NCBI GenBank assembly: GCA_963842525.1
Contig: CAWJGT010000003.1
Coordinates: 1,824,001-1,888,000 of the forward strand
Length of the DNA stretch: 64,000 nt
Direction of reading: 5' to 3'
Source: an uncultured Holophagales bacterium
GTDB taxonomy: Bacteria > Acidobacteriota > Thermoanaerobaculia > Multivoradales > UBA5704
The notes under the pieces: model-generated
Database searches by the model: none
Told to the model about the DNA's origin: nothing
Seen by the model: the letters and a program-made list of their open reading frames with translations, nothing else
Shown: piece by piece, positions 510 through 62,293 of the stretch
Numbering within the stretch: position 1 is the stretch's first letter
Layout of the letters: each line of letters opens with the position of its first letter
Translations under genes and position numbers: made by a program

Positions 510-2072
510 TTGCCGAGCCGCTCGATCCTTTCCGATCGTGAGCGGGAGACGCTGGAGGCGATCTCCCGGCTCACCCACGGCAACCCGTTCGGGACCGACC
601 GCCTGCAGTGGGAGCGGGAGGTGCTGGGCGAGGCGTTCACGCCGTTCGACGTGGTCTGGCACGCGCGGGCCGACCGGGTGGACGCCAACCCCAACGTGCC
701 CCGCATCGCGGAGCGGGCGCAGGTGCTGGCGGAAGACCTGCGGGCGCGCCTCGCCCGCGGCGGTTCCGCGCTGCGCCACGAGCTCGAGCTCTACCGCGAC
801 CTCGTCTTCTATCTCCTTTACTACAGCTTCGAAAAGCGGTTCTACGAGGTCATCACCGGTGAGGGCGGGCTGCGGGGGGTCCGGTTCTACAGGGATTTCC
901 GGGCCGACCTGTCCTCCTGGCTCGAGCTTCCCGGGATTTCATGGAGCGAGCCGATCGATCCGGGCCACCTGTTCTCCTGCTTCTTCCAGATCCGGCGGGC
1001 CTTCCACTCCACATTCCATTCGATCGTGGGCGGATCGCTTCCGGCCGCCCGCCTGCGCGAACAGGTCTGGCAGTCGATCTTCACCTGCGACCTGCGGCGG
1101 TATCAGCGTTTCCTTTTCTTGCGTATGGGCGACATCACTACCCTGGTCACCGGACCGTCCGGAACCGGCAAGGAGCTGGTGGCGCGGTCCATTGCCGACT
1201 CGCGCTACATTCCTTTCGATGCGGAGGCCCTCGCCTTCCGCGACAGCGCGGAGGAGCCCTTCTTTCCTCTGAACCTCTCGGCCCTCTCGCCCACGCTCAT
1301 CGAGTCCGAGCTCTTCGGGCACTGCCGGGGCGCCTTTACCGGGGCCGTGGCCGACCGCGCCGGCTGGCTGGAGGTTTGCCCGCCTCTGGGCACCGTGTTC
1401 CTGGACGAGATCGGCGAGGTCGATCCGTCCATCCAGGTGAAGCTCCTGCGGGTGCTGGAGACGCGCAGCTTCCAGCGTCTGGGAGACACCAAGCCCCGCC
1501 GTTTCCAGGGCAAGATCGTGGCGGCCACCAACCGCGATCTCGCGGCCGAGATGCGCGCCGGCCGGTTCCGCGACGATCTCTACTACCGGCTCTGCTCGGA
1601 CATCCTGGTCACCCCTTCGTTGCGGGAGCGGCTCGCGGATTCGCCGCAGGAGCTTTCGGATCTGGTCCTGTTCCTGGCCCAGAGAGTGGTCGGAGAGGAG
1701 CTGGCCGAGGAGGTGGCGCGCGAGGTGGAATCCTGGATCGGCGAGCACCTGGGCCCCGGCTATCCCTGGCCCGGCAACGTCCGGGAGCTCGCCCAGTGCC
1801 TGAACAACGTCCTGATCCGCCGCGATTACCGTCCAGCCGGCGAGGGAGGGGACAGCGGAGCGCGGGAACGGCTCGCCGCGGACTTCCTCGCCGGGGGCCT
1901 GCCGGCCGAGGACATCCTGCGCCGCTACTGCACGCTGGCTTACCTCCACAGCGGCAGCTACGAAGAGACCGCCCGCCGGATCGGGCTCGACCGGCGGACG
2001 GTCAAGTCGCGGGTGGACCCGGATCTGCTAAGGGAGCTGCGCGATCCCGCCGTGAGGAGGGCCCATGGTTGA
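510..2072 (+). CDS. Sigma-54-dependent transcriptional activator (bacterial enhancer-binding protein)
   Basis: Walker A GPSGTGKE, ESELFGH, GAFTGA loop, Walker B FLDEIG, WPGNVREL, C-terminal HTH-like segment; TTG start with GAGGAGG RBS. Confidence 0.93.
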   Translation: MPSRSILSDRERETLEAISRLTHGNPFGTDRLQWEREVLGEAFTPFDVVWHARADRVDANPNVPRIAERAQVLAEDLRARLARGGSALRHELELYRDLVFYLLYYSFEKRFYEVITGEGGLRGVRFYRDFRADLSSWLELPGISWSEPIDPGHLFSCFFQIRRAFHSTFHSIVGGSLPAARLREQVWQSIFTCDLRRYQRFLFLRMGDITTLVTGPSGTGKELVARSIADSRYIPFDAEALAFRDSAEEPFFPLNLSALSPTLIESELFGHCRGAFTGAVADRAGWLEVCPPLGTVFLDEIGEVDPSIQVKLLRVLETRSFQRLGDTKPRRFQGKIVAATNRDLAAEMRAGRFRDDLYYRLCSDILVTPSLRERLADSPQELSDLVLFLAQRVVGEELAEEVAREVESWIGEHLGPGYPWPGNVRELAQCLNNVLIRRDYRPAGEGGDSGARERLAADFLAGGLPAEDILRRYCTLAYLHSGSYEETARRIGLDRRTVKSRVDPDLLRELRDPAVRRAHG

Positions 2073-2301
2073 CAAGGTCGTCTCTGCAGCCTCGAAGGTG
2101 CCGTTCTGGACGGTCAGCTCCTTCTCGTTCGAGGCAAAGGCGACGAGGTTCCCGGTCCTGAAGTCGAGCACGACCGTGAGGGTGTACCCGGACGAGGCCA
2201 GATAGGAGACGGCGTAGACGTCTTCGCCGACCTGGGCGACTTCGGACTTCTCCGCGCGGGCAGGCTTGCCCTTGGCCTCGCCGGTTTTTCCGTCGAGCTC
2301 A
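2028..2301 (-). pseudogene. 3' fragment of a MoaF-like beta-barrel protein lacking its N-terminus
   Basis: Translation AQVGEDVYAVSYLASSGYTLTVVLDFRTGNLVAFASNEKELTVQNGTFE looks like real protein; no plausible start before the eCIS-1 upstream region. Confidence 0.45.
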
Positions 2302-2314
2302 CGCCCAGATGGGG

Positions 2315-2341
2315 TGAGGGGGTCTCTCCTTCTCCCTCGTT
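2315..2341 (+). promoter_or_regulatory. ECF-type promoter motif A (TGAGGG-N17-CGTT), upstream of eCIS-1 sheath
   Basis: TGAGGG 2315-2320, CGTT 2338-2341; same spacing at five other upstream sites. Confidence 0.65.
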
Positions 2342-2453
2342 GTGTGGACGAGTAGATGAAGCGGCTCCTGGGGCGACCCGGAGCGGCGAGGCACCAACGA
2401 GAACTGTGCGCCCTGTCGGCCGGAAGGCGAGGGTCGCCAAGGAGAGAGCTCTT

Positions 2454-4367
2454 ATGCCAACGTACCTTCGGCCCGGGGTGTACGTCGAGGAGATCCCGAG
2501 CGGCTCGAAGCCGATCGGGGGAGTCGGCACTTCCACCGCCGCCTTCCTCGGATTCACCACCCGGGGGACGACCGATGATCCCACCCTGATCTTCAAGTGG
2601 GACGACTACCAGCGCCTGTACGGCGGGATTCGCGACACCGGGACCTCCGCCCAGGGCGACCCGATGGGCCATAGCGTCTTCGCCTTTTTCCAGAACGGCG
2701 GCACCGCCGCCTATATCGTGCGCCTGGCCGAGGGCGGCATCCGCTCCCGCGGCGCGATCCTGCACCCCGCTGCGGACACCACACTCTCGCCGGATGACCA
2801 ACTCGTCACCTGGACGGCTGCCAACGAGGGTGCCTGGGGCAACGATGTGCGGGTGCTGTTCAACCCCAAAACCGTGGGTGGTAAAACCACCTACGTCGCG
2901 CAGATCGGCACCGGCTCGGGCGACGATTTCCAGACACTCGAGACCTTCGGCGGGATGTCCCTCACCCAGGGCGACCCCCACTACATCGAGGGCAGGATCA
3001 ACGGCGTCTCCTCGCTGGTCACGGCGAAGGTCGAGCCCGCCTCGACCCACATGCAGGGCGTCAGCATCGGCCGGGATATGGCCAGCGTCGTCCTCAACAC
3101 CCTCAACGGCCAGTCGATGTCGGTGACAGTGGACGGCACCGCTCGCAACATCAGCTTCACCGCCAGCGAAATCGGCGACGGTGCCAAGCTCGCCGATGTG
3201 GCGGCCAAGATCCAGGAGAAGGTGCGCGAAGGCGAGAACGCTCCTGCCGTCGAGAATTTCACGGCCACGGCAGCCAACAACCGGATCGTACTGACCTCGG
3301 GCTCGCGCACCGCCACCTCCTCGGTCGTGGTCGCTCCAGCCGGCACGGCGGCGGTGATCCTCGGCCTGGGCACCGGCAACCAGGGGACGGAGCGGACGGG
3401 CGACCAGAGCCTGCGCCGTGTGCTCCCCGGGTCCAACCCCCGTGTGGAGGCCGCGCTGGCCAACGGCGGCGACGGCAGCACGGCGGGCAGCAACGCCTAC
3501 CAGGCCGCCTTCGCCAAGCTGGAGAAGATCCGCGACATCAGCATCCTCTCCCTGCCCGGCCGCGCCTATGACAACGCGGGCAAGGCGCTCGTCGACTCGG
3601 CCATCGCCCACGCGCAGAAGATGCGCAACCGGGTGGTGATCGTCGATCCGCCGCAGGGTGCGCAGCTCGTCACCGAGAACGACGTCAACGGCCTCGGCCT
3701 GCCGACGTCGACCTACTCGGTCCTCTACTACCCCTGGCTCAAGGTCGCCAACCCGTTCTACAGCGCCGAGAAGAATCCGGGCGCGCCGGTGACCGTGCTC
3801 GTGCCGCCGTCCGGCTTCGCTGCCGGCATGTGGTCGCGCATCGACGGCCGCCGCGGCGTCTGGAAGGCGCCGGCCGGCGTCGAGACGGCGCTCCTGGGCG
3901 TCGCGGGCTCCGAGTTCCAGGTCGAGGACGGCGAGCAGGACCAGCTCAACCCGCTGGGCGTCAACTGCATCCGCAAGCTGCCCAACTTCGGGCCGGTCAT
4001 CTGGGGCACCCGCACGCTGTCGACCAACGCCGACCCGGAGTGGCGCTACGTGCCGGTCCGCCGCACGGCCATCTTCATCGAGCAGAGCGTCTACAACGGC
4101 ATCCAGTGGGCCGTGTTCGAGCCCAACAATCACCAGCTCTGGTCGTCGCTGCGGGTCAACATCGATTCGTTCATGAACGGCCTGTTCCGCGCCGGAGCGT
4201 TCCAGGGCGAGAAGGCGTCCGACGCCTACTTCGTCCGCTGCGGCCTCGGCGACACCATGACCCAGGGCGACATCGACCGTGGCCAGGTCATCGTGGTGGT
4301 GGGCTTCGCGCCGCTCAAGCCGGCCGAGTTCGTCATCGTCCGCATCCAGCAGAAGGTCGGACAGTAA
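2454..4367 (+). CDS. eCIS-1 contractile tail sheath protein
   Basis: MPTYLRPGVYVEE start, FFQNGG, VWKAPAG, LNPLGVNCIR, WRYVPVRR, VFEPN, APLKPAEFV sheath motifs; ATG at 2454 after AAGGAGAG. Confidence 0.96.
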   Translation: MPTYLRPGVYVEEIPSGSKPIGGVGTSTAAFLGFTTRGTTDDPTLIFKWDDYQRLYGGIRDTGTSAQGDPMGHSVFAFFQNGGTAAYIVRLAEGGIRSRGAILHPAADTTLSPDDQLVTWTAANEGAWGNDVRVLFNPKTVGGKTTYVAQIGTGSGDDFQTLETFGGMSLTQGDPHYIEGRINGVSSLVTAKVEPASTHMQGVSIGRDMASVVLNTLNGQSMSVTVDGTARNISFTASEIGDGAKLADVAAKIQEKVREGENAPAVENFTATAANNRIVLTSGSRTATSSVVVAPAGTAAVILGLGTGNQGTERTGDQSLRRVLPGSNPRVEAALANGGDGSTAGSNAYQAAFAKLEKIRDISILSLPGRAYDNAGKALVDSAIAHAQKMRNRVVIVDPPQGAQLVTENDVNGLGLPTSTYSVLYYPWLKVANPFYSAEKNPGAPVTVLVPPSGFAAGMWSRIDGRRGVWKAPAGVETALLGVAGSEFQVEDGEQDQLNPLGVNCIRKLPNFGPVIWGTRTLSTNADPEWRYVPVRRTAIFIEQSVYNGIQWAVFEPNNHQLWSSLRVNIDSFMNGLFRAGAFQGEKASDAYFVRCGLGDTMTQGDIDRGQVIVVVGFAPLKPAEFVIVRIQQKVGQ

Positions 4368-4388: not shown

Positions 4389-4899
4389 ATGGCTGCTCCA
4401 CTGTTCACTGTCAATGCGCACCGTTCCGACCCATATCGGACGTTCAAGTTTCAGGTCATCATCGACGGCAAGGTCGTCGCCGGCCTGCGCAAGATGGGCG
4501 CCCTCAAGAAGAAGACCGAACCGGTCAAGTGGCGCTCTTCCAACGACCCGTCGCACGAGCGGATCATGCCCGGCGGCACCAGCTATGAGCCGGTGACGCT
4601 GGAGCAGGGTCTGACGCACGACCCGGTGTTCGAGGCCTGGGCAAACCTGGTCAACAACATCGAGGGCGACGGTGCGGTCTCGCTCAAGAACTACCGCAAG
4701 GACATCGTCATCAACGTCCTGAACCTCCAGGGCCAGGTGGCGATCTCGTACAAGCTGTTCCGGGCGTGGATCTCGGACTACCAGGCGCTGCCCGATCTGG
4801 ACGCCGGCAACATGAACACGGTCGGCATTCAGAGCGATCACCCTGCAGCACGAGGGCTGGCAGCGCGACGGCAGCGTGGCGGAGCCGACGGAGAGCTAG
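4389..4899 (+). CDS. eCIS-1 tail tube protein (T4 gp19/Afp1-like), one frameshift near 4835
   Basis: DPYRTFKFQV...PGGTSYEPVTLEQGLT...YRKDIVI; the expected end ITLQHEGWQRD...TES* is in a shifted frame. Confidence 0.9.
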
Positions 4900-4902
4900 T
4901 CG

Positions 4903-5696
4903 ATGCTGCCCGGCGGACTCTGGCATCAGGGGGAGCGGCTCCGCGACTGGTCCTTCGCGCCTCTCACAGGCGCGGTGGAGCTGGCGATCGCGGAGGCCGC
5001 TCGCGGGGTGGGGAGCCTCCCCCAGCGGGTCACGGCGGTGCTGTCCGCCGCGCTGGGGGAGCTTGGAGGGGAGGTGGTGAGCCCCGAGGCGGTGCGCTCC
5101 CTCTGCGTCGCCGACCGGCAGTTCCTCATGCGGCAGCTCGCCGTCGTGCTCGGGGTGGGGGACGACTGGATGGCTGCATCGTGCAAGCGGTGCGGGAGCG
5201 CGTTCGAACGTGCCGATCCGCCATGCGGAGCTGCCGGTCAAGCCGGCGGGGCAGGGCTATCCGTTCGCGGAGGCCGAGACGAGCCTCGGTCCCTTGCGGC
5301 TGCGGGTCGCCACCGGCGCCGATCAGGAAGCGGTCGTGCGGATCGAGGACCCGGCGGAGGCCCGGCGCAAGCTCGCCCGGCGCTGCCTGGTCGAGCCGTC
5401 CGCCGGCAACCTTTCGGACGAAGATTTGGACCGGATCGACGCGGCGCTCGAGGAGGTCTCGCCGGAGCTCGTCGACACAGGCGCAGGTGGCCTGCGTCGA
5501 CTGCGGCAGCCCGAGCGAGCTGTTCCTCGATCCCTACGTCTGCCTCTCGCGGGCCAGCACGGAGATCTACTCGGATATCCACGTGCTCGCCTCCGTCTAC
5601 CACTGGAGCGAGCGGGAGATCCTGGGCCTGCCACGCGAGAGGCGCCAACTGTACATGGCCCTGGTCGACAGGGCGCGAGGAATAACGGCGGACTGA
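4903..5696 (+). CDS. eCIS-1 baseplate/tail-assembly protein with two CxxC motifs and DUF6760-like C-terminus; frameshifts near 5208 and 5475
   Basis: Spliced from three frames: LCVADRQFL..CKRC / VPIRHAELP..LRVATGADQ / CVDC..IHVLASVYHWSEREILGLPRERR. Confidence 0.7.
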
Positions 5697-5723
5697 GGTC
5701 CGCTGCAACAAGGAGACGAAGCC

Positions 5724-7338
5724 GTGGGTTACCTGGCCGATGTAGTCGCCGACAGCCGCTCGCGGGGGACTCATGCCCCCATGCCGGAGGCTGCCGTGCC
5801 GGGGCTGGAGCCCGCGGAAGGAGAGGTCCTGGCGCCGGAGGAGATCACCGATCCCTTCCTGGACGCCGGGCCTCTCGTCAACGATCGGGCTGGGGCCGGG
5901 GTGGTGGGCTCATGGCCGCTGGAAGACCCGGCGGCCGCCGTCCGTAAGGAGGCAACCCCTTCTCCTCTGCGGGAAGACCGGAGAGTGGCTACGGGGGAGG
6001 CGAAATCCGAAAGGTGGAAGGGTCGTGAGGTCGGCGCTTCGGTGTCACCTCTTTTATCGGCTCCAACTGCTCGTAGGCAAGTACCCGAGCTCGCAAGTGA
6101 AGTCGCAGGACTCGTGGAGAGACCACAGGAGACCGCCACCCCGCCCCATCCGAATTTTGAACCTCACCCCCTGTCCCCCTCTCCCATCGCCCCCCCTGCC
6201 GCCGGGAGAGGGGGGACGCAGGCGGAGGCTTTGCGGGACAGGGAGCTCATTCGCTGATTCCAGGGACGTTGCCCCGACGCGCCCTCACCCCGGGTTGACA
6301 CCCGGGGCTACCCAGTTCCGCCCTCCGGGCTCCGGAATGCCCGGCTCTGGCGAGCCCGGAGGGCGCCATTCGGTAGCCCCGGGTGTCAACCCGGGGCGAG
6401 GGTCCCATGATCCCTTGGCCGCTGACCATGTGACCGATCTCGACGCAGGGGTGGGGCGCGGGCAGAGTCCTCACCCCCTGTCCCCCTCTCCCATCTCCCT
6501 TCCATCCCCCGCCGGGAGAGGGGGGACGCAGGCGGAGCGGCTGGGAGATACCACTCACTCTCTTGGAGCTGGGGCTGACAGAGGAGACGGAGGCCGGCGC
6601 GCTGAAGATCTACGAGGGGGTGGGCAGGGGGAAAAGCCCCAACGGGGCGCCGGCATAAAGCCTGGGGTTTCAACCCCAGGACAGCGGTCCGATTCCATCC
6701 CAAGCCCCGAAGGGGCGACGGCAGGGCAGCGGGGTTCTAACCCCGCGGGCGCGGCCCCGCCCGGGCATGAAGTGCCCGGGCTAGGAACGGCGCCGGGTGA
6801 ACCCGGCTTGAAGCCCCATTCATGGGGCGCTGTTGCTAGCCCGGCGACTTCATCGCCGGGCGGGATTGGCTCCCGAGAGCTCCCGGAGGACCCTCTCCCC
6901 CTGGCCCCCTCTCCCGTGCGTCCCCCGGCCCTCCACCCCGAACGGGAGAGGGGGAACGCTGTGGTGGCTGGTGGGGATGAGCCGACCGCAAGCGGCAAGG
7001 CCGTTTTCGCAGAGCCCGTCCCGCCGCGGCAGGACGGGGGGGTGGGAGCCTGGGACCGCGGGCGTCTCGCCCGCCCAGAGCCGAGCCGACAGCTTCAGCA
7101 CCGATCAGCGCCACCGCTGCCGCCCACCCAGGCCCTGTCCCTTCCTTCCTTGCCTCCTCTCGCCCGCCGGGCGGAGCGAGGCCAGGGAAGGGAGTCCCAG
7201 GCACCGCGCGTCAGCATCGGGACCCTCGAAGTCGTCATCACCGTGCCCGAGCCCACCGTTCCCCAGGAGGCTCCGGCCGCGCCACCTCCGAGCGCCGGCG
7301 AGTCGTTCGCCAGCCGTTTCTATCTGAGATCTCTGTAA
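5724..7338 (+). CDS. eCIS-1 low-complexity protein filled with in-frame REP-like palindromes; frameshift near 6240
   Basis: GTG start with AAGGAG RBS (MGYLADVV); C-terminus RVSIGTLEVVI...FASRFYLRSL typical of the eCIS gene preceding Pvc16; Pro/Gly-rich middle. Confidence 0.6.
5957..7192. repeat. Cluster of several different REP-like hairpin families inside a CDS
   Basis: CCTCACCCCCTGTCCCCCTCTCCC..GGGAGAGGGGG at ~6162 and ~6469 (variant ~6889); CCCCGGGTTGACACCCGGGGCTAC inverted pair ~6287-6396; CCTGGGGTTTCAACCCCAGG ~6661; GCCCCGAAGGGGC ~6704; further hairpins ~6760-6862, ~7044, ~7138. Confidence 0.85.
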
Positions 7339-7359: not shown

Positions 7360-7920
7360 ATGCCGCTTCCTCTCTCGTCCCTGTCGCGCGTGTGCCGGTA
7401 CGTGGCCGACTTCGTCGGCTCCGAGCTGGAGGCGAGCACGCACTCGGTCCGCGTGCTGATCGGCTCTCCGGCCGAGGCGGCCAAGGATGCCGAGACCGAG
7501 CACCGTATCAATCTGTTTTTCTATCTGATCGAACCGTCCGGCTTCGGCTTTGGCATGGCCCCGGGCGAGACCTGGCTGCTGCGCCTGCACTGCCTGATCA
7601 CGGCCTTTGGCGCCGCAGAAAGCCCGGTCAGCTCGGGGGAGAACGACCTGCGGCTGCTCGGCGAGGTCCTGCGCGCCTTCCACGAAAATCCGGTCCTTCC
7701 GCCGCTCGACATCGATGGCTCTACCGTGCGGATGCAGGCGGTTTTCGAGCCCCTCACCCTCGACCAAATCAATCACATCTGGTCGACCCAGGGGGACGTC
7801 ACCTACCGTCCGTCGGTCGGCTATGAGATGACCCTGCTGCCGGTCATACCGAAGACGCCGGCGGTGGCGAGCCCGCTCGTCGCCGCGATCGACGTCAGCG
7901 TCCATGCGGAGGAGCCATGA
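7360..7920 (+). CDS. Pvc16/Afp16-family (DUF4255) tail terminator/cap protein
   Basis: INLFFYLIEP, LHCLITAF, LLGEVLRAFHENPVL, IWSTQG..YRPSVGYE. Confidence 0.88.
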   Translation: MPLPLSSLSRVCRYVADFVGSELEASTHSVRVLIGSPAEAAKDAETEHRINLFFYLIEPSGFGFGMAPGETWLLRLHCLITAFGAAESPVSSGENDLRLLGEVLRAFHENPVLPPLDIDGSTVRMQAVFEPLTLDQINHIWSTQGDVTYRPSVGYEMTLLPVIPKTPAVASPLVAAIDVSVHAEEP

Positions 7921-9260
7921 GCGCCTGGGCACTGGGCGTCGAGCCGGAGAACGCCATCCTCGCGCGGCCGGAGCTGCTGCGCGCCGAGTGGGAGCGCATC
8001 GAGCTGCTCGGCCACTGCCTCGACCAGTCGCGGCGCGGTCAGGAGGTCGGGAAAGAGGTCATCTCGCGCCTCCAGGGCCTCCAGTCGGAGGTGCAGCAGT
8101 CGCGGCCGGATGCCTGGCGGATCGTCGATGCGCCCGACCTCGCGCCGCATGAGTACGACCTGCTGGCCTGCGCGGTGGCTCCCGAGGCCGAGCCCCGGCT
8201 CGGATGGCTCTTCCAGAGCCTCCAGCCCGGCGCACCGCAGCCCTATCCGACCCCTGCCTTCGTCCACGACCTGCTGGCCATGGACTCCCTGGAGGCGAAT
8301 ACGCTCTATGAAGCGCTCGCCGACGGCGGCAGGCTGCGCCAGCGCAACCTGATCCGCGTGGACGGGGAGGACCCCTACCAGCCGATCCGGCCCGGTCCGG
8401 GGATTGCCGCCCGCCTGCTTGGCCGTCAGGGAGGCGATGCGGCCCCGCCCGGCGCCGTCAAGGTCACCGCGCGGCCGGCCTGGGACGACCTCGTGCTGCC
8501 GCAGTCCCACCTCGCCATGCTGCGCGAGCTGCTGCTCTGGGTGCAGCACCGGCGCATCGTTGTCGAAGAGTGGGGTGGCGGCGAGGTCGGCGGACCGATC
8601 GCGCTCTTCGCCGGCCCGTCGGGCACCGGCAAGACCTTCGCTTCGGCGGTGCTCGCCGCCGAGCTCGGCTGGCCGCTCTATCGGGTCGACCTCGGCCAGC
8701 TCGTCAGCAAGTACATCGGCGAGACCGAAAAGAACCTGAACCGCCTCTTCGACGCCGCACACGGCCGGCCCATGGTCCTGCAGTTCGACGAGGCGGACAG
8801 CCTCTTCGGCAAGCGCGGCGAGATCAAGGAGGCGCGCGACCGCTACGCCAACCTGGAGGTCAACCACCTGCTGGCGCGCATCGAATCGCACCGCGGCCCC
8901 TGCATCCTGACCTCCAACCTGCGTCGCAACATGGACCAGGCCTTCGCGCGGCGCTTCCAGGTCGTGGTCGACTTCCCGCGCCCGGACGCCGAGTCGCGCT
9001 CACGCCTCTGGGCCCGCCTGCTGCCTCCGCGCGCCCCCCGCGCGGCGGACGTCGATCCCGAGTTTCTTGGCCTGGCGGCCAACCTGACCGGCGGCGGCAT
9101 CCGCAACGCCGCCCTCCACGCCGCCTACCTGGCAGCCGGGGCGGGCACGCCGATCACCCTGGCGCACGTGACCCTGGCGGTCTGGCGCGAGCTGGGCAAG
9201 GACGGCCGCGAGCTGTCGCGTACCGACCTCGGGCCGCTGGCGCCGTACCTGGCGGAATAG
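7917..9260 (+). CDS. eCIS AAA+ ATPase (Afp15/Pvc15-like)
   Basis: WDDLVLP, GPSGTGKT, VDLGQLVSKYIGETEKNL, FDEADSLFGKR, DRYANLEV. Confidence 0.95.
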   Translation: MSAWALGVEPENAILARPELLRAEWERIELLGHCLDQSRRGQEVGKEVISRLQGLQSEVQQSRPDAWRIVDAPDLAPHEYDLLACAVAPEAEPRLGWLFQSLQPGAPQPYPTPAFVHDLLAMDSLEANTLYEALADGGRLRQRNLIRVDGEDPYQPIRPGPGIAARLLGRQGGDAAPPGAVKVTARPAWDDLVLPQSHLAMLRELLLWVQHRRIVVEEWGGGEVGGPIALFAGPSGTGKTFASAVLAAELGWPLYRVDLGQLVSKYIGETEKNLNRLFDAAHGRPMVLQFDEADSLFGKRGEIKEARDRYANLEVNHLLARIESHRGPCILTSNLRRNMDQAFARRFQVVVDFPRPDAESRSRLWARLLPPRAPRAADVDPEFLGLAANLTGGGIRNAALHAAYLAAGAGTPITLAHVTLAVWRELGKDGRELSRTDLGPLAPYLAE

Positions 9261-9263
9261 GCC

Positions 9264-9500
9264 ATGTGGTCCATCGAGCGGCTGCGCCTGGAGCTGCCGG
9301 CCGGCTTCGAGCACCGGGCTGGGAGGATCGCGCAGCTCCTGGCGCGGGAGCTGGAGGCGATCGCCGTGCCGGGAGACCTGCGTCTCCAGGAGCTGAAGCT
9401 GCCGCCGCTCGAAATCGACCCTGCCGCGGGCGATGGCGAGATCGCCTGGCAGATCGCCCGCGGCATGGCCCAAAGCATCAGTGACAGAGGCCGCCGGTAG
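9264..9500 (+). CDS. Small eCIS-associated hypothetical protein
   Basis: IERLRLELP start, 3 nt after the ATPase stop, high-GC3 codon usage. Confidence 0.7.
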   Translation: MWSIERLRLELPAGFEHRAGRIAQLLARELEAIAVPGDLRLQELKLPPLEIDPAAGDGEIAWQIARGMAQSISDRGRR

Positions 9501-9546
9501 CAAGAGTAGAATGGGAGGAAACCATGACCGCGTGAGGAGGTTTGCG

Positions 9547-10377
9547 ATGAAAGGAACCGCAGTCTTTCCCGCCGTGCTCCTTCTGGCCCTGACGGCCCAC
9601 CCTTCCCAGGCGTCCGTTGTCGCCAAGCTGACGTTCAACGGTGCCGGAACCGCGGCGCCCGTCGTCGTCCCCCTCAATATAGGCAACGTGCCGCTCGGCA
9701 CGATCGTGGACATCAACCTGGAGCTCTGCTTCAAGCAGCCGGCTTCGCCGCAGGGTTCCTGCGACCAGAGCGGAACGGTGAGCCTGGAAGAGCAACTCGC
9801 CCCACCGTTTTTCTTCGTCGCAGCGTTCCGCGAAGCCCTGGCAACGGGGGCGACGACACCGGTCAGCTTCCCCGTCACCCTCGCGGCAGGGCAGCGCCTG
9901 ATCGTGCTCAGCCACTGGGTTCCCGACCGGATCGGTTCAGTCACCGACTCCCTGGTGCTGCAAGGCTCCTCGGGCGCCGACACCGATATCTTCCGTGTCG
10001 ACCTCACAGGGTCGGGCGTGCCCTCCGGGGCATGTGTGCCGAGCTCTCAGGCGCTTTGTCTCGGCAACGGCCGCTTCAAGGTGCAGTCGGATTTTCTGAG
10101 CTCGACGGACTCGGAGGCGGCGCGGGGGGGCGAACTGACCGACGACACCGGGTATCTCTATTTCTTCAGCCCATCGAACGTCGAGGCAGTGGTCAAGGTG
10201 CTCAACGCCTGCTCGTTCAACAACCGGTTCTGGGTCTTCGCCGGCGGTTTGACCGATGTGCGCACCGTGATCAGCGTCACCGACACGCAACGAAATGTCG
10301 TCAAGACCTATATCAACCCCCAAGGGACGCCATTCCGGCCAATCCAGGACACCGGCGCCTTCGCTACCTGTCCGTGA
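9547..10377 (+). CDS. Secreted protein with Ig-like region and Thermoanaerobaculia-type C-terminal domain
   Basis: Signal peptide MKGTAVFPAVLLLALTAHPSQA; C-terminal LCLGNGRFKV..DDTGYLYFF..NVEAVVKVLNAC..FWVFAGGLTDV..IQDTGAFATCP. Confidence 0.8.
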   Translation: MKGTAVFPAVLLLALTAHPSQASVVAKLTFNGAGTAAPVVVPLNIGNVPLGTIVDINLELCFKQPASPQGSCDQSGTVSLEEQLAPPFFFVAAFREALATGATTPVSFPVTLAAGQRLIVLSHWVPDRIGSVTDSLVLQGSSGADTDIFRVDLTGSGVPSGACVPSSQALCLGNGRFKVQSDFLSSTDSEAARGGELTDDTGYLYFFSPSNVEAVVKVLNACSFNNRFWVFAGGLTDVRTVISVTDTQRNVVKTYINPQGTPFRPIQDTGAFATCP

Positions 10378-21467: not shown

Positions 21468-21530
21468 AGGCTCTCCCTTAGTAAGCAGCTTTCCTATTAT
21501 CTCTTTGTCAGATTCGCTTCGGATGGAGAG

Positions 21531-21749
21531 GCCCCGAAGGGGCTTGGGCATAAAGCCTGGCGCTTCAGCGCCAGTTGGCGCCCCCCAATGACCTGGAGCC
21601 CTGAAGGGGCGCAGGCATTCTCTACCATCCACCCGCGGCGGGGCTCGCGCCCCTCGCCCGTGCCGTCGCCCTTTCAGGGCTTTGGGTCAATATTGGGCCT
21701 CGGTCCTGGGGTTGAAACCCCAGGCTTTACGCCTTTGCCCCTGCGGGGC
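21531..21749. repeat. Intergenic REP-like inverted-repeat composite
   Basis: GCCCCGAAGGGGC..GGCATAAAGCCTGG inverted against CCTGGGGTTGAAACCCCAGGCTTTACGCC..GCCCCTGCGGGGC; same family as the copy at ~6637-6716. Confidence 0.85.
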
Positions 21750-21847
21750 TGCCGCCAGCCAGGGCCAATCTGACAAATAGAATTATGGCATCACAGGTCG
21801 TTGAGCACGCAAGCCCCGAGCGTGGAGCGTAGGGTCTCCAAGCATCC

Positions 21848-35916: not shown

Positions 35917-37184
35917 GCCGTCACCTCCACCGCGAGCTCGGCCATTTCGCCGGCTGCGAAGCTCACTCGCTGCACGGGTCCCGGCAGCATGTGTCCGGCA
36001 TCGCTCGTCAGCTCCGCCGAGACGACGAAGCTGATCTCGGGAAGCCCGGTCAGGAGCTGGTTCAGCTCGTTCAGGCTCGTCTCCCAGGGCGCCGTGCCTC
36101 CCGGCCCACCGGAGCCGGGATGGAAGTGCCGGCGGAGGGCGGACTTGACGGCCTGCCGCACCGCCGCCGGGGTCACATTCAGCTCCGGCCGGACCCAGGC
36201 TTTCACCCGCACCGGTGCGAAGCGGGTGCCGAAGACGAGGAGCTGCGGCTCGATCCGCGCCCAGGGGAGGTGATGGGAATCCAGGGCGAGGCCGATCAGA
36301 TCGCCCGTGTCGTGCCAGAGGGCAGCGGCCTCGACGCAACGTGGGGCGTCCGCCGGGCAGGCGCTCGCCAGGGCCAGGTCGACCACGTGGTCCACGCCGG
36401 GTACGTCGCGCTCCAGGAGCTGGTACAGCTCGGAGACGTAGACGTCCCGCCCGAAGGGCCAGCCCCGGCCGTCCGGTCCGCCGGTCCGTGGATCGAGGAA
36501 CCTCTCCAGGGCCGCGGCGACCTGCCGCCGCAGAGGCTCGACGGCCACGTCCGGCCGGGTCGCCAGGACGATCTCCGGCGTGACCGGCACGTAGACCGGT
36601 GCGGCGACATGCTGCCGCACGGTGAGGAGCCGGCGCGGCGCCAGGCCCTCGCGGACAGCGCGGAGGAGGTCTTCGGAGGGCATGGGAGCCCCGGGCCGCG
36701 AAGCAGGGTCTTCGCCCTCCGGGTGTGGGACGACGAGGACGCTGACGTGGCCTTCCCGCGGGAGCGTCCGCAGCGCTTCGGTCCTCGCCTCCAGGTCACG
36801 CAGCCGCACGCAGTGCGCCCGGGCCACCCGCGGATCGGCCTCGCGAGCCAGGACCTCGTAGTCGTCCGGAGTCACGGCCCGGTGGCGTGCCCGCAGGTCG
36901 AGCAATGCAGAGCGGATATCCGCGTCCAGGTCCGGCCCCGGCGTCCAGGCCGGCCCGTTGAGCAGCTTGAGGAAGGTGCGGGTGTTGTCCGCGGTCAGGC
37001 GATTGACCCGGTAGATCAGCATCTCCGTGAGCCAGGCGAAGAGCTCGACCAGGGTGATGCCGGGATCGGACGGGTTGAGGTTCGTCCACGTCCGCTCGGG
37101 GACGAGGGTCGGGATCAGGGCCCGCGCCTCGTCTACCAGGTCGGCGAACGTGCGGTCGTCGAGGTTCGGCTGCGGGATGCTCAT
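35913..37184 (-). CDS. Baseplate J/gp47-family protein
   Basis: PNLDDRTFADLV, NPSDPGITLVELFAWL, RAVTPDDYE, GWPFGRDVY. Confidence 0.92.
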   Translation of the reverse strand: MSIPQPNLDDRTFADLVDEARALIPTLVPERTWTNLNPSDPGITLVELFAWLTEMLIYRVNRLTADNTRTFLKLLNGPAWTPGPDLDADIRSALLDLRARHRAVTPDDYEVLAREADPRVARAHCVRLRDLEARTEALRTLPREGHVSVLVVPHPEGEDPASRPGAPMPSEDLLRAVREGLAPRRLLTVRQHVAAPVYVPVTPEIVLATRPDVAVEPLRRQVAAALERFLDPRTGGPDGRGWPFGRDVYVSELYQLLERDVPGVDHVVDLALASACPADAPRCVEAAALWHDTGDLIGLALDSHHLPWARIEPQLLVFGTRFAPVRVKAWVRPELNVTPAAVRQAVKSALRRHFHPGSGGPGGTAPWETSLNELNQLLTGLPEISFVVSAELTSDAGHMLPGPVQRVSFAAGEMAELAVEVTA

Positions 37185-42385: not shown

Positions 42386-43030
42386 TCAGCTCCGCGGCGG
42401 AATGGACAGCACCATGCCCGGCGTCATCCGGCGCGGGTTGTCGATGCCATTCATCGCGGCGATGGATCGCCAGAGGCCGGGGTCGTCATACTCCTCGGCC
42501 GCGATGCTGGAGAGCGTGTCCCCCTGGCGCAGCACGCGCGTGCGCACCACGGCCGGCAGGCCGGCCAGCCCCGGGACCTCGCGGGTCTCCTCTTCAGGGT
42601 CGATCCACTGCGTGAAGCTGCACCCCAGGGTCGCCCGCACCGGCGTGCCATCGGAAAGAAAAAGGGTATACGTCTGGGACAGGCTCCGCAGCACCCACGG
42701 GAAGCCGCCGAAGTTGTAGCGGCCCCACTGCAACCGGCACCGCGGCGGCCGTCCGAGATCGCCCTGGACCCGCAGCAGCCGCGCGATCTGGCGGGTGATC
42801 AGGCTCACATCGACCCCCTGCTCGTAGGTGTCGAAAAAGAGATCGACCGCGAGAGTGAGCGGAGCGCTGTAGGTGTAGCTCGACTGCGCGGTGCGCTGCG
42901 CGGTCGGCGCCGGCACCCAGCGTGCGTCCTGCGTGAACCGGAGCTGGTTCGGATTGAAGAGCACGGGGACCGGCACCCCATAAACCCGGTTCCGCGTCTC
43001 GACCGCAATCGTAAGCTTTTCCAAAGCCAT
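42386..43030 (-). CDS. CIS tube initiator with LysM domain (Afp7-like)
   Basis: LEKLTI, VLFNPNQ, LFFDTYE, RPP..LQWG, GTPVRA, GDTLSSIAAEEYDDPGLWRSIA..NGIDNP. Confidence 0.93.
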   Translation of the reverse strand: MALEKLTIAVETRNRVYGVPVPVLFNPNQLRFTQDARWVPAPTAQRTAQSSYTYSAPLTLAVDLFFDTYEQGVDVSLITRQIARLLRVQGDLGRPPRCRLQWGRYNFGGFPWVLRSLSQTYTLFLSDGTPVRATLGCSFTQWIDPEEETREVPGLAGLPAVVRTRVLRQGDTLSSIAAEEYDDPGLWRSIAAMNGIDNPRRMTPGMVLSIPPRS

Positions 43031-43031
43031 C

Positions 43032-44108
43032 TCACCGGCCTCCCAGGCGCCCGCGCTCGACCGCAATCGACCGCGCCAGTTGTCGCATCACCCGTTCCGC
43101 GAGGTCGTCCGCGACCTCACCACCTTGGATGCCGTCGGGCGGCTCAGGTTTCATCGAAAGAACCTCACCCCCTGTCCCCCTCTCCCATCTCCCTCCCTCC
43201 GACCGGGAGAGGGGGGACGCGTCTCGGCTCTCTGGCGCGACCTCATTCCCTGGAACAGGTGGTGGCGTTGTTGTTTTGAGAATGGGCAAGGGTAAAGCCT
43301 CTGAAAAAGGCGCAGGCATAAAACCTGGGATTTCAAGAGGAAGCATGGGAGGCAGCAGAAGCGCCCCTTGTGGGCGCGGGAACGTAGCCCCGGGTTTCAA
43401 CCCGGGGTCGGGGAGGCCCCGATCATGATTTCGAGCCCCTTCAGGGGCGATGGCACGGTCGCGTGGGGTTCCCAAAGGCATAGGGTCGCCCGTCCGCCCC
43501 GGGTTGAAACCCGGGGCTACGTGCCCGCGCCCATGAAGGGCGCCGCCCCCGGACCCGCCGGTTGATTGAGCGCGTACAAGGACGATGGGCATATTCGGTT
43601 CAATAGGAGGCGCCGCGTCCCGCCCATGCCCAGGGTTCACACCCTGGGCTACCGAATGTCGCCCTCCGGGCTCAAGAGAGTCAGGGTTCCCAGAGCCCGG
43701 AGGGCGGAACTGGGTAGCCCCGGGTGTCAACCCGGGGCGGCGAGCTACAATCGCCGGCCCGATCTCCACAACCGCCGGTCGCAAAACGACTTTTTCCGCC
43801 ACCGCAGCAACCTTCACCTCAGGCAAACTCGAAGCCGTCCCCCCTCTCCCGGTCGGGGGGAGGGAGATGGGCGAGGGGGCCAAGGGGTGAGGGGCCACCG
43901 GAGCCACCGGGGCACCAACGCTCGCATAAACCAATCCGCCTCCTGGACCGCTCGCCATCCCCGGCGTCCACCGCTGCAGAATGTCGGCCGCGAGCGTCGA
44001 TCCTCCGAGGCTCGCCCGCGCCCGCATCCGCCGCACCACCCCCGGCTCAGTCGCGCGCCGCAGAAGACTCTGTCCCAGCTCTGTCGTTTCACCGTCCATG
44101 TCTCTCAT
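43032..44108 (-). CDS. eCIS-2 low-complexity protein filled with in-frame REP-like palindromes
   Basis: Uninterrupted ORF between tube 2 and the LysM gene; helical C-terminus DDLAERVMRQL..IAVERGRLG typical of this eCIS position. Confidence 0.68.
   Translation of the reverse strand: MRDMDGETTELGQSLLRRATEPGVVRRMRARASLGGSTLAADILQRWTPGMASGPGGGLVYASVGAPVAPVAPHPLAPSPISLPPTGRGGTASSLPEVKVAAVAEKVVLRPAVVEIGPAIVARRPGLTPGATQFRPPGSGNPDSLEPGGRHSVAQGVNPGHGRDAAPPIEPNMPIVLVRAQSTGGSGGGALHGRGHVAPGFNPGRTGDPMPLGTPRDRAIAPEGARNHDRGLPDPGLKPGATFPRPQGALLLPPMLPLEIPGFMPAPFSEALPLPILKTTTPPPVPGNEVAPESRDASPLSRSEGGRWERGTGGEVLSMKPEPPDGIQGGEVADDLAERVMRQLARSIAVERGRLGGR
43127..43153 (-). promoter_or_regulatory. Promoter motif B upstream of eCIS-2 LysM/baseplate sub-operon
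   Basis: Plus strand GGATGC-N14-GGTTTCA. Confidence 0.58.
43163..43893. repeat. Cluster of REP-like hairpins inside a CDS
   Basis: CCTCACCCCCTGTCCCCCTCTCCC element at 43163 and inverted at ~43836-43893; CCCCGGGTTTCAACCCGGGG pair ~43361-43545; element ~43629-43737 is nearly the reverse complement of 6287-6396. Confidence 0.88.
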
Positions 44109-44112
44109 GGGC

Positions 44113-44622
44113 TCACCTGAAGGCATTACGGAACGTGCTCAGCGTGCCACCCTGGCTGGAGACGTCGCGGCTGACCGCGGGCCGCGAGAGGCCGCGGTGC
44201 GCCAGCTCGACCGTCTCCACGGCGATCGCATTGGATTCGGACCGCAGCGAGGGCCCGCTCCAGCGCACCGGATATGCCTCGCGGAAGCTCCACCAGATCG
44301 AAGGCTGTCCCTGGGCATCGAGGAGATAGACCGTGCCATTCCTGCGCTCCACGAGGCCCGCGGCCACGTCCTGATGCCAGCTCCAGAGCGTGGCGATATC
44401 GGTGACCCCGCGGCGGAGGATCAGGTTCGAGGGATACCGCGTGGGACCGGGCAGACGGTGCACGTACTCGTTGCGCCCGCCCTCGCGGTAGTCCTCGAAA
44501 ACCGTTTCAATCTCCAGGCCGCCGACCTCCGAGAAGCCGCCCACCACCAGGCCTTCGACCTCCACCAGGAAATTGAAGGCGAGATAGGGGTCCCTGCGCG
44601 AATCCAGTCCCAGCGTCGGCAT
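44113..44622 (-). CDS. Tail tube protein 2 (Afp5-like)
   Basis: DPYLAFNFLVEVEG..GGFSEVGGL, YREGG, LRRG, AYPVRWSGP, VETVELAH. Confidence 0.95.
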   Translation of the reverse strand: MPTLGLDSRRDPYLAFNFLVEVEGLVVGGFSEVGGLEIETVFEDYREGGRNEYVHRLPGPTRYPSNLILRRGVTDIATLWSWHQDVAAGLVERRNGTVYLLDAQGQPSIWWSFREAYPVRWSGPSLRSESNAIAVETVELAHRGLSRPAVSRDVSSQGGTLSTFRNAFR

Positions 44623-44631
44623 GGTCGTCCT

Positions 44632-44805
44632 CTAATGCGCCTGCGCGCTCTCCTCGTTCAGCCGCCGGTTGATCCGGGCGACCTCCGCGACCCAGTGTTG
44701 CCGGTCGCGGTGCTCGAGCCGCAGGATCTCGTCCTGCGGCCAGTGAAAGTGATAGGCGAGGTAGGCTACCTCCTCGAACAGGCGGTCCGAGGGGTAGCCC
44801 ATCAT
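44632..44805 (-). CDS. DUF6760-family small protein
   Basis: Not in ORF track; MMGYPSDRLFEEVAYLAYHFHWPQDEILRLEHRDRQHWVAEVARINRRLN. Confidence 0.88.
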   Translation of the reverse strand: MMGYPSDRLFEEVAYLAYHFHWPQDEILRLEHRDRQHWVAEVARINRRLNEESAQAH

Positions 44806-45167
44806 CGTCCCGAGCCTGCGAGCTCCACCTCGTAGGCTTCCTCGCAGTGTGGACAGGTCACCGCCACGCGGTTGTGACCCTCCTCGTTCAGCCGCCGGTA
44901 GAGGTCCTGCAGGTAGGCCAGGTCGCAGGCGAACATCCCTTCGATCACCTTGGGATTGACCTGGTCCAGCGTCCCCAGCCGCGTGATCACCCGCGCCAGG
45001 AGGATGATCACGAGATAGCCCGGATTGGATTGCACTCGCGGGTCTTTCATGGGCGCGATCTCGTCATAGGCCGTGGCCAGCCGCATGACCCCCTCGCGGT
45101 GGAGGTTGCCCTCCGCGTCGAGGAAGCCGCGCGGCAATGTAAAGGGATGCTCGGTCTGGAGCGTCAT
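44802..45167 (-). CDS. Tail assembly chaperone-like protein
   Basis: TEHPFTLPRGF..LHREGVMRLATAYDEI..DLAYLQDLY..CPHC. Confidence 0.88.
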   Translation of the reverse strand: MTLQTEHPFTLPRGFLDAEGNLHREGVMRLATAYDEIAPMKDPRVQSNPGYLVIILLARVITRLGTLDQVNPKVIEGMFACDLAYLQDLYRRLNEEGHNRVAVTCPHCEEAYEVELAGSGR

Positions 45168-45170
45168 GGA

Positions 45171-56275: not shown

Positions 56276-56315
56276 TTGACGTGGTCCCACTCTTCGCGTA
56301 CGCTTTTCCGTACGC
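56276..56315 (+). promoter_or_regulatory. Sigma-70 promoter and palindromic operator of the TA operon
   Basis: TTGACG-N17-TACGCT overlapped by two CGTACG palindromes. Confidence 0.6.
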
Positions 56316-56330
56316 CGAAGGAGACAGCGA

Positions 56331-56573
56331 ATGACTACAATCACCGCCACCGATGCCCGCAAGATCCTCTACAAGCTGCTGGACGATGTGGCTGACTCGC
56401 ATGAGCCTATCCAGATCACCAGCAAGCGCGGCAATGCAGTCCTCGTTGCCGAGGAGGACTGGCGGGCCGTACAAGAGACCCTCTATCTCGTCTCCTTCCC
56501 CGGAATGAGGGAGTCCATTCTCGAAGGAATGAGCACGCCGGTTGAGGAGTGCGAAAAGGATCTCGACTGGTGA
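56331..56573 (+). CDS. yefM: Phd/YefM antitoxin
   Basis: ARKILYKLLDDV..HEPIQIT..GNAVLV..W..QETLYL..PGMRESI. Confidence 0.92.
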   Translation: MTTITATDARKILYKLLDDVADSHEPIQITSKRGNAVLVAEEDWRAVQETLYLVSFPGMRESILEGMSTPVEECEKDLDW

Positions 56574-56833
56574 GTTGGACGCTCGTCTATACGAAGCAAG
56601 CCAAGAAGGATGCGAAGAACCTCACGGCCGCGGGTTTGAAGCCGAAGGCGCAACGCCTGCTCGCGATTCTCGAAGAGAACCCGTATCGCACCCCGCCTGT
56701 GTACGAGAAGCTCGTCGGCGATCTGGCTGGAGCGTACTCCCGGCGCATCAACATCCAGCATCGGCTCGTCTACCAGATCCTTGACGACATCCAGACCGTC
56801 AAGGTGCTGCGGATGTGGACGCACTACGAGTAG
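56570..56833 (+). CDS. yoeB: Txe/YoeB toxin
   Basis: YEKLVGDLAGAYSRRINIQHRLVY..RMWTHYE; GTGA overlap. Confidence 0.94.
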   Translation: MSWTLVYTKQAKKDAKNLTAAGLKPKAQRLLAILEENPYRTPPVYEKLVGDLAGAYSRRINIQHRLVYQILDDIQTVKVLRMWTHYE

Positions 56834-62118: not shown

Positions 62119-62236
62119 GTTCGGTTTCCTCCGTGGGAAAAGAAGTTGAGGGTTGGCCGCTCCCCGAGCGGGAGCGCGTTCGGACACCCTCTGAGAGGAA
62201 GAGCGAGAATCGGCGGAGTTTTCGACGATTGTTTCT

Positions 62237-62293
62237 CCCCCCTCTCCCGGCGGGGGGTGGAAGGGAGATGGGAGAGGGGGTCAGGGGGGTGAG
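62237..62293. repeat. REP-like element (CCTCACCCCC family, inverted) at the 3' end of rimI
   Basis: CCCCCTCTCCCGG..GGGAGATGGGAGAGGGGG..GGGGGTGAGG. Confidence 0.85.

Follow-up and report, generated by a model that had tools for sequence, protein, structure and literature searches.

Can a gene of a bacterial contractile injection system (CIS) take up one palindromic element after another and still encode a working protein? The question is raised by gene X, part of a CIS locus on the forward strand of a stretch of DNA from an uncultured Holophagales bacterium (assembly GCA_963842525.1, contig CAWJGT010000003.1, positions 1,824,001-1,888,000). We refer to this whole stretch of 64,000 nt, which has a G+C content of 68.5%, as the window, and coordinates are positions in it unless another locus is named. 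Gene X lies between the gene for a T4 gp51-like chaperone and the gene for the cap protein, whose nearest public relatives are found in Acidobacteriota genomes labelled Holophagales or Thermoanaerobaculia. A first-pass annotation of the window had described hairpins of repetitive extragenic palindromic (REP) elements between protein-like ends in this gene (5724-7338). This description is borne out, with at least eight elements in the gene and an open reading frame (ORF) in five of five orthologous loci.

Our preferred explanation, to which we give a probability of roughly 60%, is that X is a real CIS gene with a translated spacer that tolerates REPs. The protein would work through two short conserved ends, with a long, intrinsically disordered spacer between them. 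This spacer would have to stay translatable, but its residues would be nearly free to vary. REP palindromes landing in the spacer would be tolerated while the reading frame survives, and in this genome they would have replaced most of it. Sequence comparisons show that the gene is real, that selection keeps its spacer open in the relatives, and that the elements belong to families of extragenic REPs.

Gene X in related genomes

Six related Acidobacteriota loci (L001-L006; 84,103 nt in total) were fetched using the cap gene as an anchor. In all five that hold the whole interval from the gp51-like gene to the cap gene, X is one intact ORF, of 386, 421, 435, 436 or 532 codons, and its N- and C-termini share one frame. 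The sixth locus holds the last 104 codons of X alone. With the conserved ends cut off, the middle parts of the five ORFs stay open in 2, 1, 18, 3 and 3 of 2000 dinucleotide shuffles, and the other five frames carry 1-10 stops each.

The first-pass annotation had proposed that orthologues be aligned to look for gains and losses in multiples of three, and this is the pattern found. In codon-blind pairwise nucleotide alignments of ten pairs, 92 of the 124 internal gaps are multiples of three, and so are all 34 gaps in the three pairs that are 71-78% identical (11/11, 11/11 and 12/12). The most diverged pairs do worse, e.g. 7/15. The ratio of nonsynonymous to synonymous substitution rates (dN/dS) is 0.15-0.48 at the ends (0.15-0.43 for the N-terminus, 0.23-0.48 for the C-terminal module), against 0.63-0.93 for the middle; the REP-bearing part has 0.49-0.74, and the differences by codon position agree. 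Because of the single ORF, the shuffle tests, the in-frame gaps and the dN/dS values in the orthologues, we regard X as a real protein gene. Its ends are evidently under purifying selection, and its centre in the relatives is constrained only to stay open, with near-neutral evolution of the amino acids.

The conserved parts are short. They consist of a 14-residue N-terminus, at which the window gene is 86% identical in nucleotides to L001 over 42 nt, and a C-terminus of ~50 residues; the middle is disordered and hypervariable. In an AlphaFold2 model of the L004 protein, built on a five-sequence alignment, the mean predicted local distance difference test score (pLDDT) is 45, with 332 of 435 residues below 50. 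The only blocks above 70 are two strands (393-396 and 399-402) and a helix (427-434), all near the C-terminus. Residues 1-392 contain one helix (134-152, pLDDT ~50) and otherwise no secondary structure, which is weak evidence as the alignment is shallow.

The X family is evidently rare. When 1.84 billion representatives were searched with a profile, 21 matches came up, six of them at E-values up to 1e-10, and 12 of the 21 were inspected. One of these, P0013 (394 aa), is a further full-length member, in which the ends are the same and the centre differs. Eight are shorter C-terminal pieces (45-139 aa) in which the C-terminal motif is shared. The C-terminal module of the window gene aligns with all of these, as well as with the five orthologues and L005. 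The other three inspected matches (P0024, P0025 and P0014) fall outside the family and are described further below.

Palindromic elements inside gene X

The eight elements in the middle of X cover in total 629 of 1615 nt. Seven of them make up 566 nt of a 272-codon stretch (6159-6975), and the eighth is found just 5' of the C-terminal module (Table 1). The first-pass annotation had distinguished five repeat families here. That these are hairpin repeats stands: a GTAG-REP pattern matches six times in the window and a family-A hairpin pattern five times, vs none in 100 shuffles in either case. Their number does not stand, since the families amount to just two superfamilies. These are a C-rich hairpin, family A, and two-hairpin units with differing stems that resemble the Rfam family Acido-Lenti-1 (RF01687).

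Two of the Acido-Lenti-1 matches in X pass the gathering score of 37 (6353-6396 with 37.2 bits and 6635-6680 with 39.5 bits) and two are below it (6288-6331 with 33.1 bits and 6703-6745 with 13.7 bits). The gathering score is also reached by one match each at 21.7 kb and 43.6 kb. Of the seven matches in the window, five are inside ORFs. GTAG adjoins the stem in 6/6 matches to the GTAG pattern, of which five have no mismatch and one has three; the tags of units C and D differ (AAAG and CTAG). The GTAG-tagged inverted dimer in X, which fits the pattern with 0 mismatches, is a palindrome of 121 nt with arms of 51 nt that are 90% complementary (folding free energy, dG, -109.9 kcal/mol; z -12.2) and is 88% identical to 43628-43737. 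Palindrome D, of 117 nt, has arms of 54 nt that are 78% complementary (dG -87.6 kcal/mol, z -8.7), and no second copy of it was found elsewhere in the window. The folding of family-A hairpins 1-3 is no more stable than that of shuffles (z -2.0, -0.2 and +0.25), and we count family A as repeats by sequence and not by energy. The A-like hairpin near the C-terminal module is known as one copy, by its fold.

Two of the families also occur outside CIS genes, as the first-pass annotation had stated, with copies at 21530-21750 and 62236-62288. Further repeats are found in a second CIS locus of the window (43160-43220, 43362-43407, 43497-43520, 43629-43737 and 43836-43892), which includes an inverted dimer at 43622-43743 similar in kind to that of X. 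There are four repeat clusters in the 64 kb. All six GTAG pattern units and four of the five family-A pattern matches are inside X or inside an ORF of the second locus, ORF2, and the mainly extragenic location that is typical of GTAG REPs is not seen within the window, which may not represent the genome. A Pfam scan of the 95 window ORFs, covering 64 kb of a contig of ~2 Mb, found no transposase domain, such as that of a REP-associated tyrosine transposase (RAYT, IS200-like Y1). Survival in frame is easy for such elements, which are GC-rich and mostly free of stops: the number of open frames out of six is 5-6 for A, 3 for B, 4 for C and 2 for D.

The orthologues present a simpler picture, with a non-REP middle block and 2-4 family-A units. 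It had been suggested that X is either a REP sink or built from REPs. A disordered region colonised in frame is what we find, and for the family as a whole the second alternative fails on the non-REP middle of the orthologues. The family-A units of the orthologues form an inverted pair, or two pairs in L001, and family A was found in X of L001, L003, L005 and L006. In L001 an in-frame tandem duplication of 303 nt (L001:8939-9519; two 278-nt copies, 84% identical) doubles the REP pair and adds ~100 residues. The middle block, which has a lower G+C content, lies at L001:8389-8829, L002:8909-9367, L003:7043-7483, L004:8932-9372 and L006:596-1036.

The family-A copies of the window are 75-88% identical to the orthologue units, in both orientations, and apart from the first 42 nt they are the only parts of the window gene with nucleotide similarity to its orthologues. 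The frame in which the unit is read differs between the window and L001, therefore the peptide itself is not what is kept. When each X was used as a query against the six loci, the only matches outside an annotated X gene were in the first 309 nt of L005, which are the end of L005's X. The flanks alone thus do not reveal the family-A units of the orthologues as dispersed repeats; their dispersal is indicated instead by unrelated proteins that share the peptides.

REP-coded peptides in other proteins

Of the three inspected matches outside the X family, P0024 is a member of Pfam CIS_TMP (E 5e-84; 587 aa vs a 463-position profile) and shares with X only the REP-coded segment of the orthologues. 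P0025 is an unrelated protein that has the REP-coded segment at its C-terminal end, and in P0014, a 741-aa repeat protein, no such segment was seen. Two other proteins contain the GTAG dimer in the frame that X uses, in each case between two domains: P0004 is a glycosyltransferase (GT2) and P0005 an ATP-grasp/GNAT protein. Its peptide is conserved, with one frame shared by X, ORF2, P0004 and P0005. The proteins P0004, P0005, P0024 and P0025 may be either real fusions or the result of read-through by gene callers.

A second reading frame with the same REP families

The second CIS locus, which looks complete, is on the reverse strand and extends from a baseplate J gene at 37181 to an AAA ATPase gene ending at 53109. 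Its ORF2 is open through ~760 nt of X's REP families. Shuffling leaves the REP part of ORF2 open in 13 of 2000 cases and the whole ORF in 1 of 2000. A coding signal in the G+C content of third codon positions (GC3) is confined to the last ~30 codons. We found no relatives of the ORF2 ends, including among shorter proteins, and a search with the whole protein was swamped by REP-coded words, giving four matches of which two are the window's own proteins. ORF2 matches 0 NCBIfam and 0 PHROGs families. It is weaker evidence than X, and what is really coded here may be a short 3' ORF that is preceded by a repeat cluster of the usual intergenic kind.

Frame breaks in the window copy

In the window itself gene X is interrupted: the frame of the N-terminus ends at a TGA, and a second frame is open over 5773-7338. 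The first-pass annotation had reported a frame that stays open for over 1 kb after one indel, placed at 6240. The open frame is confirmed. A harmless single indel is not, as the break is one of six +1 shifts, and neither is its position. We aligned the family-A copies with their flanks in order to place the break, and these flanks are not conserved, so that 6240 is not pinned; the break lies somewhere within 5773-6255, where both frames are open.

The six frame changes relative to the orthologues affect five genes of the first CIS locus within ~15 kb (Table 1). All are +1 by phase arithmetic, and the four that were inspected are single extra bases. The shift near 4836 is a single extra base compared with L001 and L004, which leaves the last 23 codons of the tube gene out of frame, and the shifts near 5208 and 5474 in the gp51-like gene are single-base insertions. 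The restored frames contain no nonsense codons, and there are no deletions. In the second CIS locus the Pfam domains are uncut and no frame change is detectable; an asd-like gene is intact as well. Programmed frameshifting, as known from tail chaperones, was considered and rejected, since the orthologues read straight through. Insertions of single bases in one direction look technical, while the fact that they cluster in a single locus would suit a biological origin, or an assembly of poor quality in this region. On balance we lean very slightly towards an assembly artefact over real mutation, and for the single break in X we infer an insertion error of the assembly.

Competing explanations

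The rival that survives best is that this copy of the locus is decaying. Here X was killed by a real frameshift, REPs piled into the dead gene, and the open frame is incidental, arising from GC-rich repeats with few stops. This would account for the concentration of shifts in one locus when none is detectable in the other, and for a window gene that has at least eight elements vs 2-4 in the intact orthologues and has lost the shared middle block. It is also in keeping with a foreign-looking gene for a secreted protein at 9433-10377 that is absent from L002, and with the ease with which most REP frames stay open (49 of 2000 shuffles). However, all six shifts are in one direction, with single-base insertions in the four inspected cases and neither nonsense codons nor deletions, the tube protein is still 97% identical to that of L001, and the frame of the C-terminal module of X still extends through 1080 nt laden with REPs. 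Furthermore, tolerance of REPs needs no dead gene, because the intact orthologues and P0024 carry REPs in frame. We consider decay unlikely.

Several observations weigh against a translated spacer. The REP part of the window gene (6259-6975) is open in its frame in the 49 of 2000 shuffles just mentioned, and in 18 of 2000 if followed on to the stop. The window's own frame is therefore only moderate evidence, which gains weight because the orthologues were also kept open. The REP part of the window gene has no coding GC3 signal. The frame breaks are not in long homopolymers, and the broken copy with its clustered breaks would fit local decay as well as local assembly trouble. The proteins P0004, P0005, P0024 and P0025 were retrieved by means of their REP-coded peptides and so give no frequency at which CIS genes are hit. 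Finally, translation of the REP-coded stretch in this organism is presumed in our preferred explanation.

A different proposal, which we think improbable, is that the hairpins are selected as RNA. The array lies at the border between genes of high-copy (sheath, tube) and low-copy (cap, ATPase, baseplate) products, and it could stabilise the upstream message or attenuate the downstream one, with an open frame that keeps ribosomes on the mRNA and avoids polarity. Both CIS loci place a REP array right after a tube gene and before the baseplate genes. In the available text of PMC3733652, REPs are said to be mostly just downstream of coding regions and are thought to be RNA elements, and Acido-Lenti-1 was itself proposed as an RNA (PMC2864571). 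The middle block of the orthologues differs about equally at the three codon positions, and in the closest pairs its proportion of synonymous differences (pS) of 0.22-0.26 is below that of the ends (0.26-0.41), which hints at constraint at the nucleotide level. That said, RNAalifold gives this block a covariation term of just -1.28 kcal/mol, too little to claim RNA structure, translation through the array would melt the hairpins, and conservation at both ends of the protein shows its importance as a product. Selection on the RNA is compatible with a translated, REP-tolerant spacer.

That there is no single gene, and that short upstream and downstream ORFs flank an ordinary intergenic REP cluster which is open by chance, is hardly credible: the REP part lacks a coding signal, public gene predictions include the C-terminal pieces of 45-139 aa and ORF2 could be such a case, but those pieces may have been cut at contig ends, and all five orthologues have one frame from a conserved N-terminus to a conserved C-terminus, with in-frame indels and supporting shuffle tests.

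A possible role for gene X

Returning to a translated spacer, we asked what such a protein might do. X follows the tube gene and a chaperone-like gene, as the first-pass annotation had observed, and the chaperone is gp51-like. This is also where the genes of CIS tape measures (Afp14 / Alg14; PF19268) are found, and there is no other ruler candidate in the locus. By exclusion, it speaks for X that CIS_TMP was matched by none of the 95 window ORFs and by none of 18 ORFs scanned in L002 and L004. X resembles the tape measures further in its length of 386-537 residues, which is within the range of rulers of extracellular CIS (eCIS), and in having conserved ends and a variable centre. At the 0.216-0.229 nm per residue given for eCIS tape measures in the available text of bioRxiv 10.64898/2026.05.27.728243, this range of lengths would correspond to ~83-123 nm.

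A number of results count against a tape-measure role. Neither frame of the window gene matches any Pfam family, including CIS_TMP (PF19268), and nor do X of L001 and P0013; P0024, put through this search as well, reaches 5e-84. X matches 0 NCBIfam families, and 0 PHROGs families were found for X of L004, L001 and P0013 and for the C-terminal part of the window gene. A sequence search of the PDB with the X profile gave 0 matches at E-values up to 1. The Atlas look-alikes of X, the best at 0.85, are all unnamed and have a low recognition value. The same preprint describes eCIS tape measures as predicted to be mainly alpha-helical, unlike the centre of X, which is predicted to be disordered and is almost free of amino-acid constraint. 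The tape-measure role that had been suggested for X is thus supported by gene position, and not by a Pfam match or a predicted helical centre; by position and exclusion it is plausible. A complex prediction for the gpD-like hub and the last 60 residues of X scored 0.00 (mark 0.32), which counts neither way. X as a cargo protein was rejected, as no effector domain follows the disordered part.

The spike plug is another luminal protein to compare. Cis6/Afp6 is described by Weiss et al. (2022, PMC8894136) as a small protein that closes off the cavity of the spike and has a flexible loop extending into the tube lumen. Its gene is flanked by those of the tube adaptor (Cis5) and the LysM tube initiator (Cis7). 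X is not at this position, but ORF2 is, lying between Cis5-like and Cis7-like genes. The likeness of ORF2 to Cis6/Afp6 rests on gene position, as its ends are without detectable relatives. X may reside in the tube lumen, tape-measure-like or plug-like, with its C-terminus as an anchor. We propose only tentatively, giving it somewhat under an even chance, that X is a ruler or plug protein of the lumen, anchored by its C-terminus, and that its spacer is passive.

A more general idea, which we rate as doubtful, is that the disordered proteins of the CIS tube lumen, i.e. tape measures and spike plugs, are landing pads for REPs. If the lumen tolerates any disordered chain, the transposition or loss of REPs would amount to stepwise changes in the length of the ruler, and particle length and room for cargo would change between strains. 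The spread of X from 386 to ~537 residues, the in-frame duplication of 303 nt seen in L001 and the presence of REPs in P0024, a CIS_TMP protein, could be traces of such a process.

Neighbouring genes

The order of genes in the first CIS locus, on the forward strand, is sigma-54 activator, sheath, tube, gp51-like chaperone, X, cap, AAA ATPase and further genes, which include those for a tube initiator, a tail-X protein, a gpD-like hub, a VgrG-like spike and baseplate J. The 97% identity of the tube protein to that of L001 applies to 149 aa, of which the tail is read in frame +1. The gp51-like gene was identified from its intact L002 orthologue, which resembles T4_baseplate clusters in Atlas features (0.96) and in structure (template modelling score 0.84). 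Its match to Pfam PF12322 is below the cut-off (E 0.001), and it matches a PHROG of the baseplate hub at 3e-4.

Table 1. Positions of gene X, its palindromic elements and other features of the window (a point in the strand column marks features listed on neither strand)
Feature	Position	Strand	Remarks
Sigma-54 activator gene	510-2072	+	First gene listed of the CIS locus
Sheath gene	2073-4367	+	
CIS tube gene, T4 gp19-like	4389-4896	+	Pfam Phage_T4_gp19 9e-32, profile 1-125 of 134
T4 gp51-like baseplate hub assembly chaperone gene	4900-5696	+	One frame in orthologues, three frames in the window
Shine-Dalgarno-like AAGGAG	5710-5715	+	8 nt upstream of the GTG start of X; read from sequence
Gene X	5724-7338	+	Between gp51-like chaperone gene and cap gene
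X N-terminal reading frame, GTG start	5724-6257	+	Stop TGA 6255-6257
X conserved N-terminal 14 codons	5724-5765	+	Aligns with first 14 residues of five orthologues and P0013
REP family A copy 1, C-rich hairpin	6159-6235	+	92% identical to 43160-43220
Inverted dimer of GTAG-tagged REP units	6282-6402	.	Acido-Lenti-1 units 6288-6331 (+) and 6353-6396 (-)
REP family A copy 2	6469-6545	+	96% identical to extragenic copy 62236-62288
Acido-Lenti-1 unit	6635-6680	-	Rfam 39.5 bits; 27/27 nt identical to 21703-21729
Acido-Lenti-1-like two-hairpin unit, weak evidence	6703-6746	-	Rfam 13.7 bits, E 2.7 (901-nt search); both hairpins in fold
Palindrome D, inverted pair of two-hairpin units	6752-6868	.	Other stem sequences, CTAG tag
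REP family A copy 3, diverged	6892-6975	+	Matches family-A copy in L005
A-like C-rich hairpin	7136-7198	+	Just 5' of C-terminal module; in fold of 7100-7220, z -4.0; 6/6 frames open
X conserved C-terminal module and TAA stop	7201-7338	+	Beta-hairpin motif, P/A-rich stretch, terminal helix motif
Cap gene, Pvc16_N / DUF4255	7360-7920	+	Pfam 2.8e-26; starts 21 nt past the X stop
AAA ATPase gene	7917-9260	+	
+1 frame changes	4836, 5208, 5474, 5773-6255, about 12151, about 17832	+	Tube, gp51-like (twice), X, gpD-like hub, baseplate J
Extragenic pair of Acido-Lenti-1 units	21530-21750	.	Between divergent genes; 21705-21750 and 21530-21575, Rfam 37.2 and 24.3 bits
ORF2 of the second CIS locus, 364 codons	43032-44126	-	Between Cis5-like tube gene 44113-44622 and LysM tube initiator 42386-43066
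Extragenic family A copy	62236-62288	-	3' end of GNAT gene

Some other genes of the window deserve mention. Directly 3' of the ATPase gene is a small conserved gene of 78 codons (9264-9500, forward strand), which has a counterpart in L002 just before 12639 and for which no family match was found. Between it and the tube initiator gene, the gene at 9433-10377 (forward strand) has a signal-peptide-like N-terminus and no counterpart in L002; it looks like an insertion into the CIS locus. In the second locus a gene of 122 codons lies between the two tube genes (44802-45170, reverse strand) and matches a PHROG of tail assembly chaperones at E 1e-5. An ORF of ~795 codons with lower G+C (48566-50950, reverse strand) lies between the ATPase and cap genes of that locus; no Pfam family matches it. 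The motif at its N-terminus presumably recalls the start of DUF4157-type eCIS cargo proteins, and it may be a payload. Away from both loci, a Phd/YefM antitoxin is paired with a YoeB/ParE-like toxin at 56280-56830 (forward strand).

Comparison with known palindromic elements

Palindromic elements in frame are already known from Rickettsia (PMC10969869) and from other bacteria (PMC3733652), and X is evidently an unusually large case of a known phenomenon. The first-pass annotation had taken Rickettsia as the classic intragenic exception. This is too narrow, as intragenic GTAG/CGTC REPs are reported from several species in the available text of PMC3733652.

The GTAG/CGTC REPs described there by Di Nocera et al. 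(2013) are short palindromes tagged with GTAG, often arranged as inverted dimers and thought to be moved by RAYT transposases. They are mostly extragenic and sometimes found in ORFs, to which they add 20-30 residues. The largest REP-coded stretches quoted are of 43-82 residues, and the hosts are mostly genes of DNA replication and repair. Compared with these cases, as far as that text describes them, X has more REP sequence per gene, mixes two unrelated superfamilies and is a CIS gene.

Rickettsia palindromic elements (RPEs) are mobile elements that lie in frame in protein genes and add a peptide segment, according to a review of miniature inverted-repeat transposable elements (PMC10969869). 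As outlined in that review, they are ~150 bp long, usually occur once per gene, encode a conserved peptide and are found in folded metabolic proteins. In contrast, the REPs of X are short, GC-rich and numerous and share a single disordered spacer, and the reading frame of one and the same element differs across lineages. This comparison is by description and not by sequence relatedness.

Acido-Lenti-1 was listed as a probable non-coding RNA by Weinberg et al. (2010, PMC2864571, Table 1). The elements in X are like this family in score and in their two-hairpin architecture; unlike what that listing implies, they behave as GTAG-tagged REPs in inverted dimers. This suggests that the Acido-Lenti-1 'RNA' is a REP of the GTAG type, a reading that is new here. 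Also new are the scale, the two REP superfamilies in one spacer, the CIS host genes and the clean signature of a spacer that is open but otherwise free. We found nothing relevant in the literature that links REPs with CIS or tape-measure genes.

Implications

If the REP-coded stretch of X is translated, the suggested reading of Acido-Lenti-1 as a REP would matter for the annotation of Acidobacteriota, where gene callers already emit proteins with REP-coded peptides. The stretch would then also be among the largest known cases of selfish palindromes inside a working protein, and a clean natural example of a spacer that is constrained only to stay open. Furthermore, if X is a ruler, the gain and loss of REPs would tie the activity of mobile elements to particle length and cargo capacity, the properties that, according to the available text of bioRxiv 10.64898/2026.05.27.728243, engineers now tune by hand in other eCIS.

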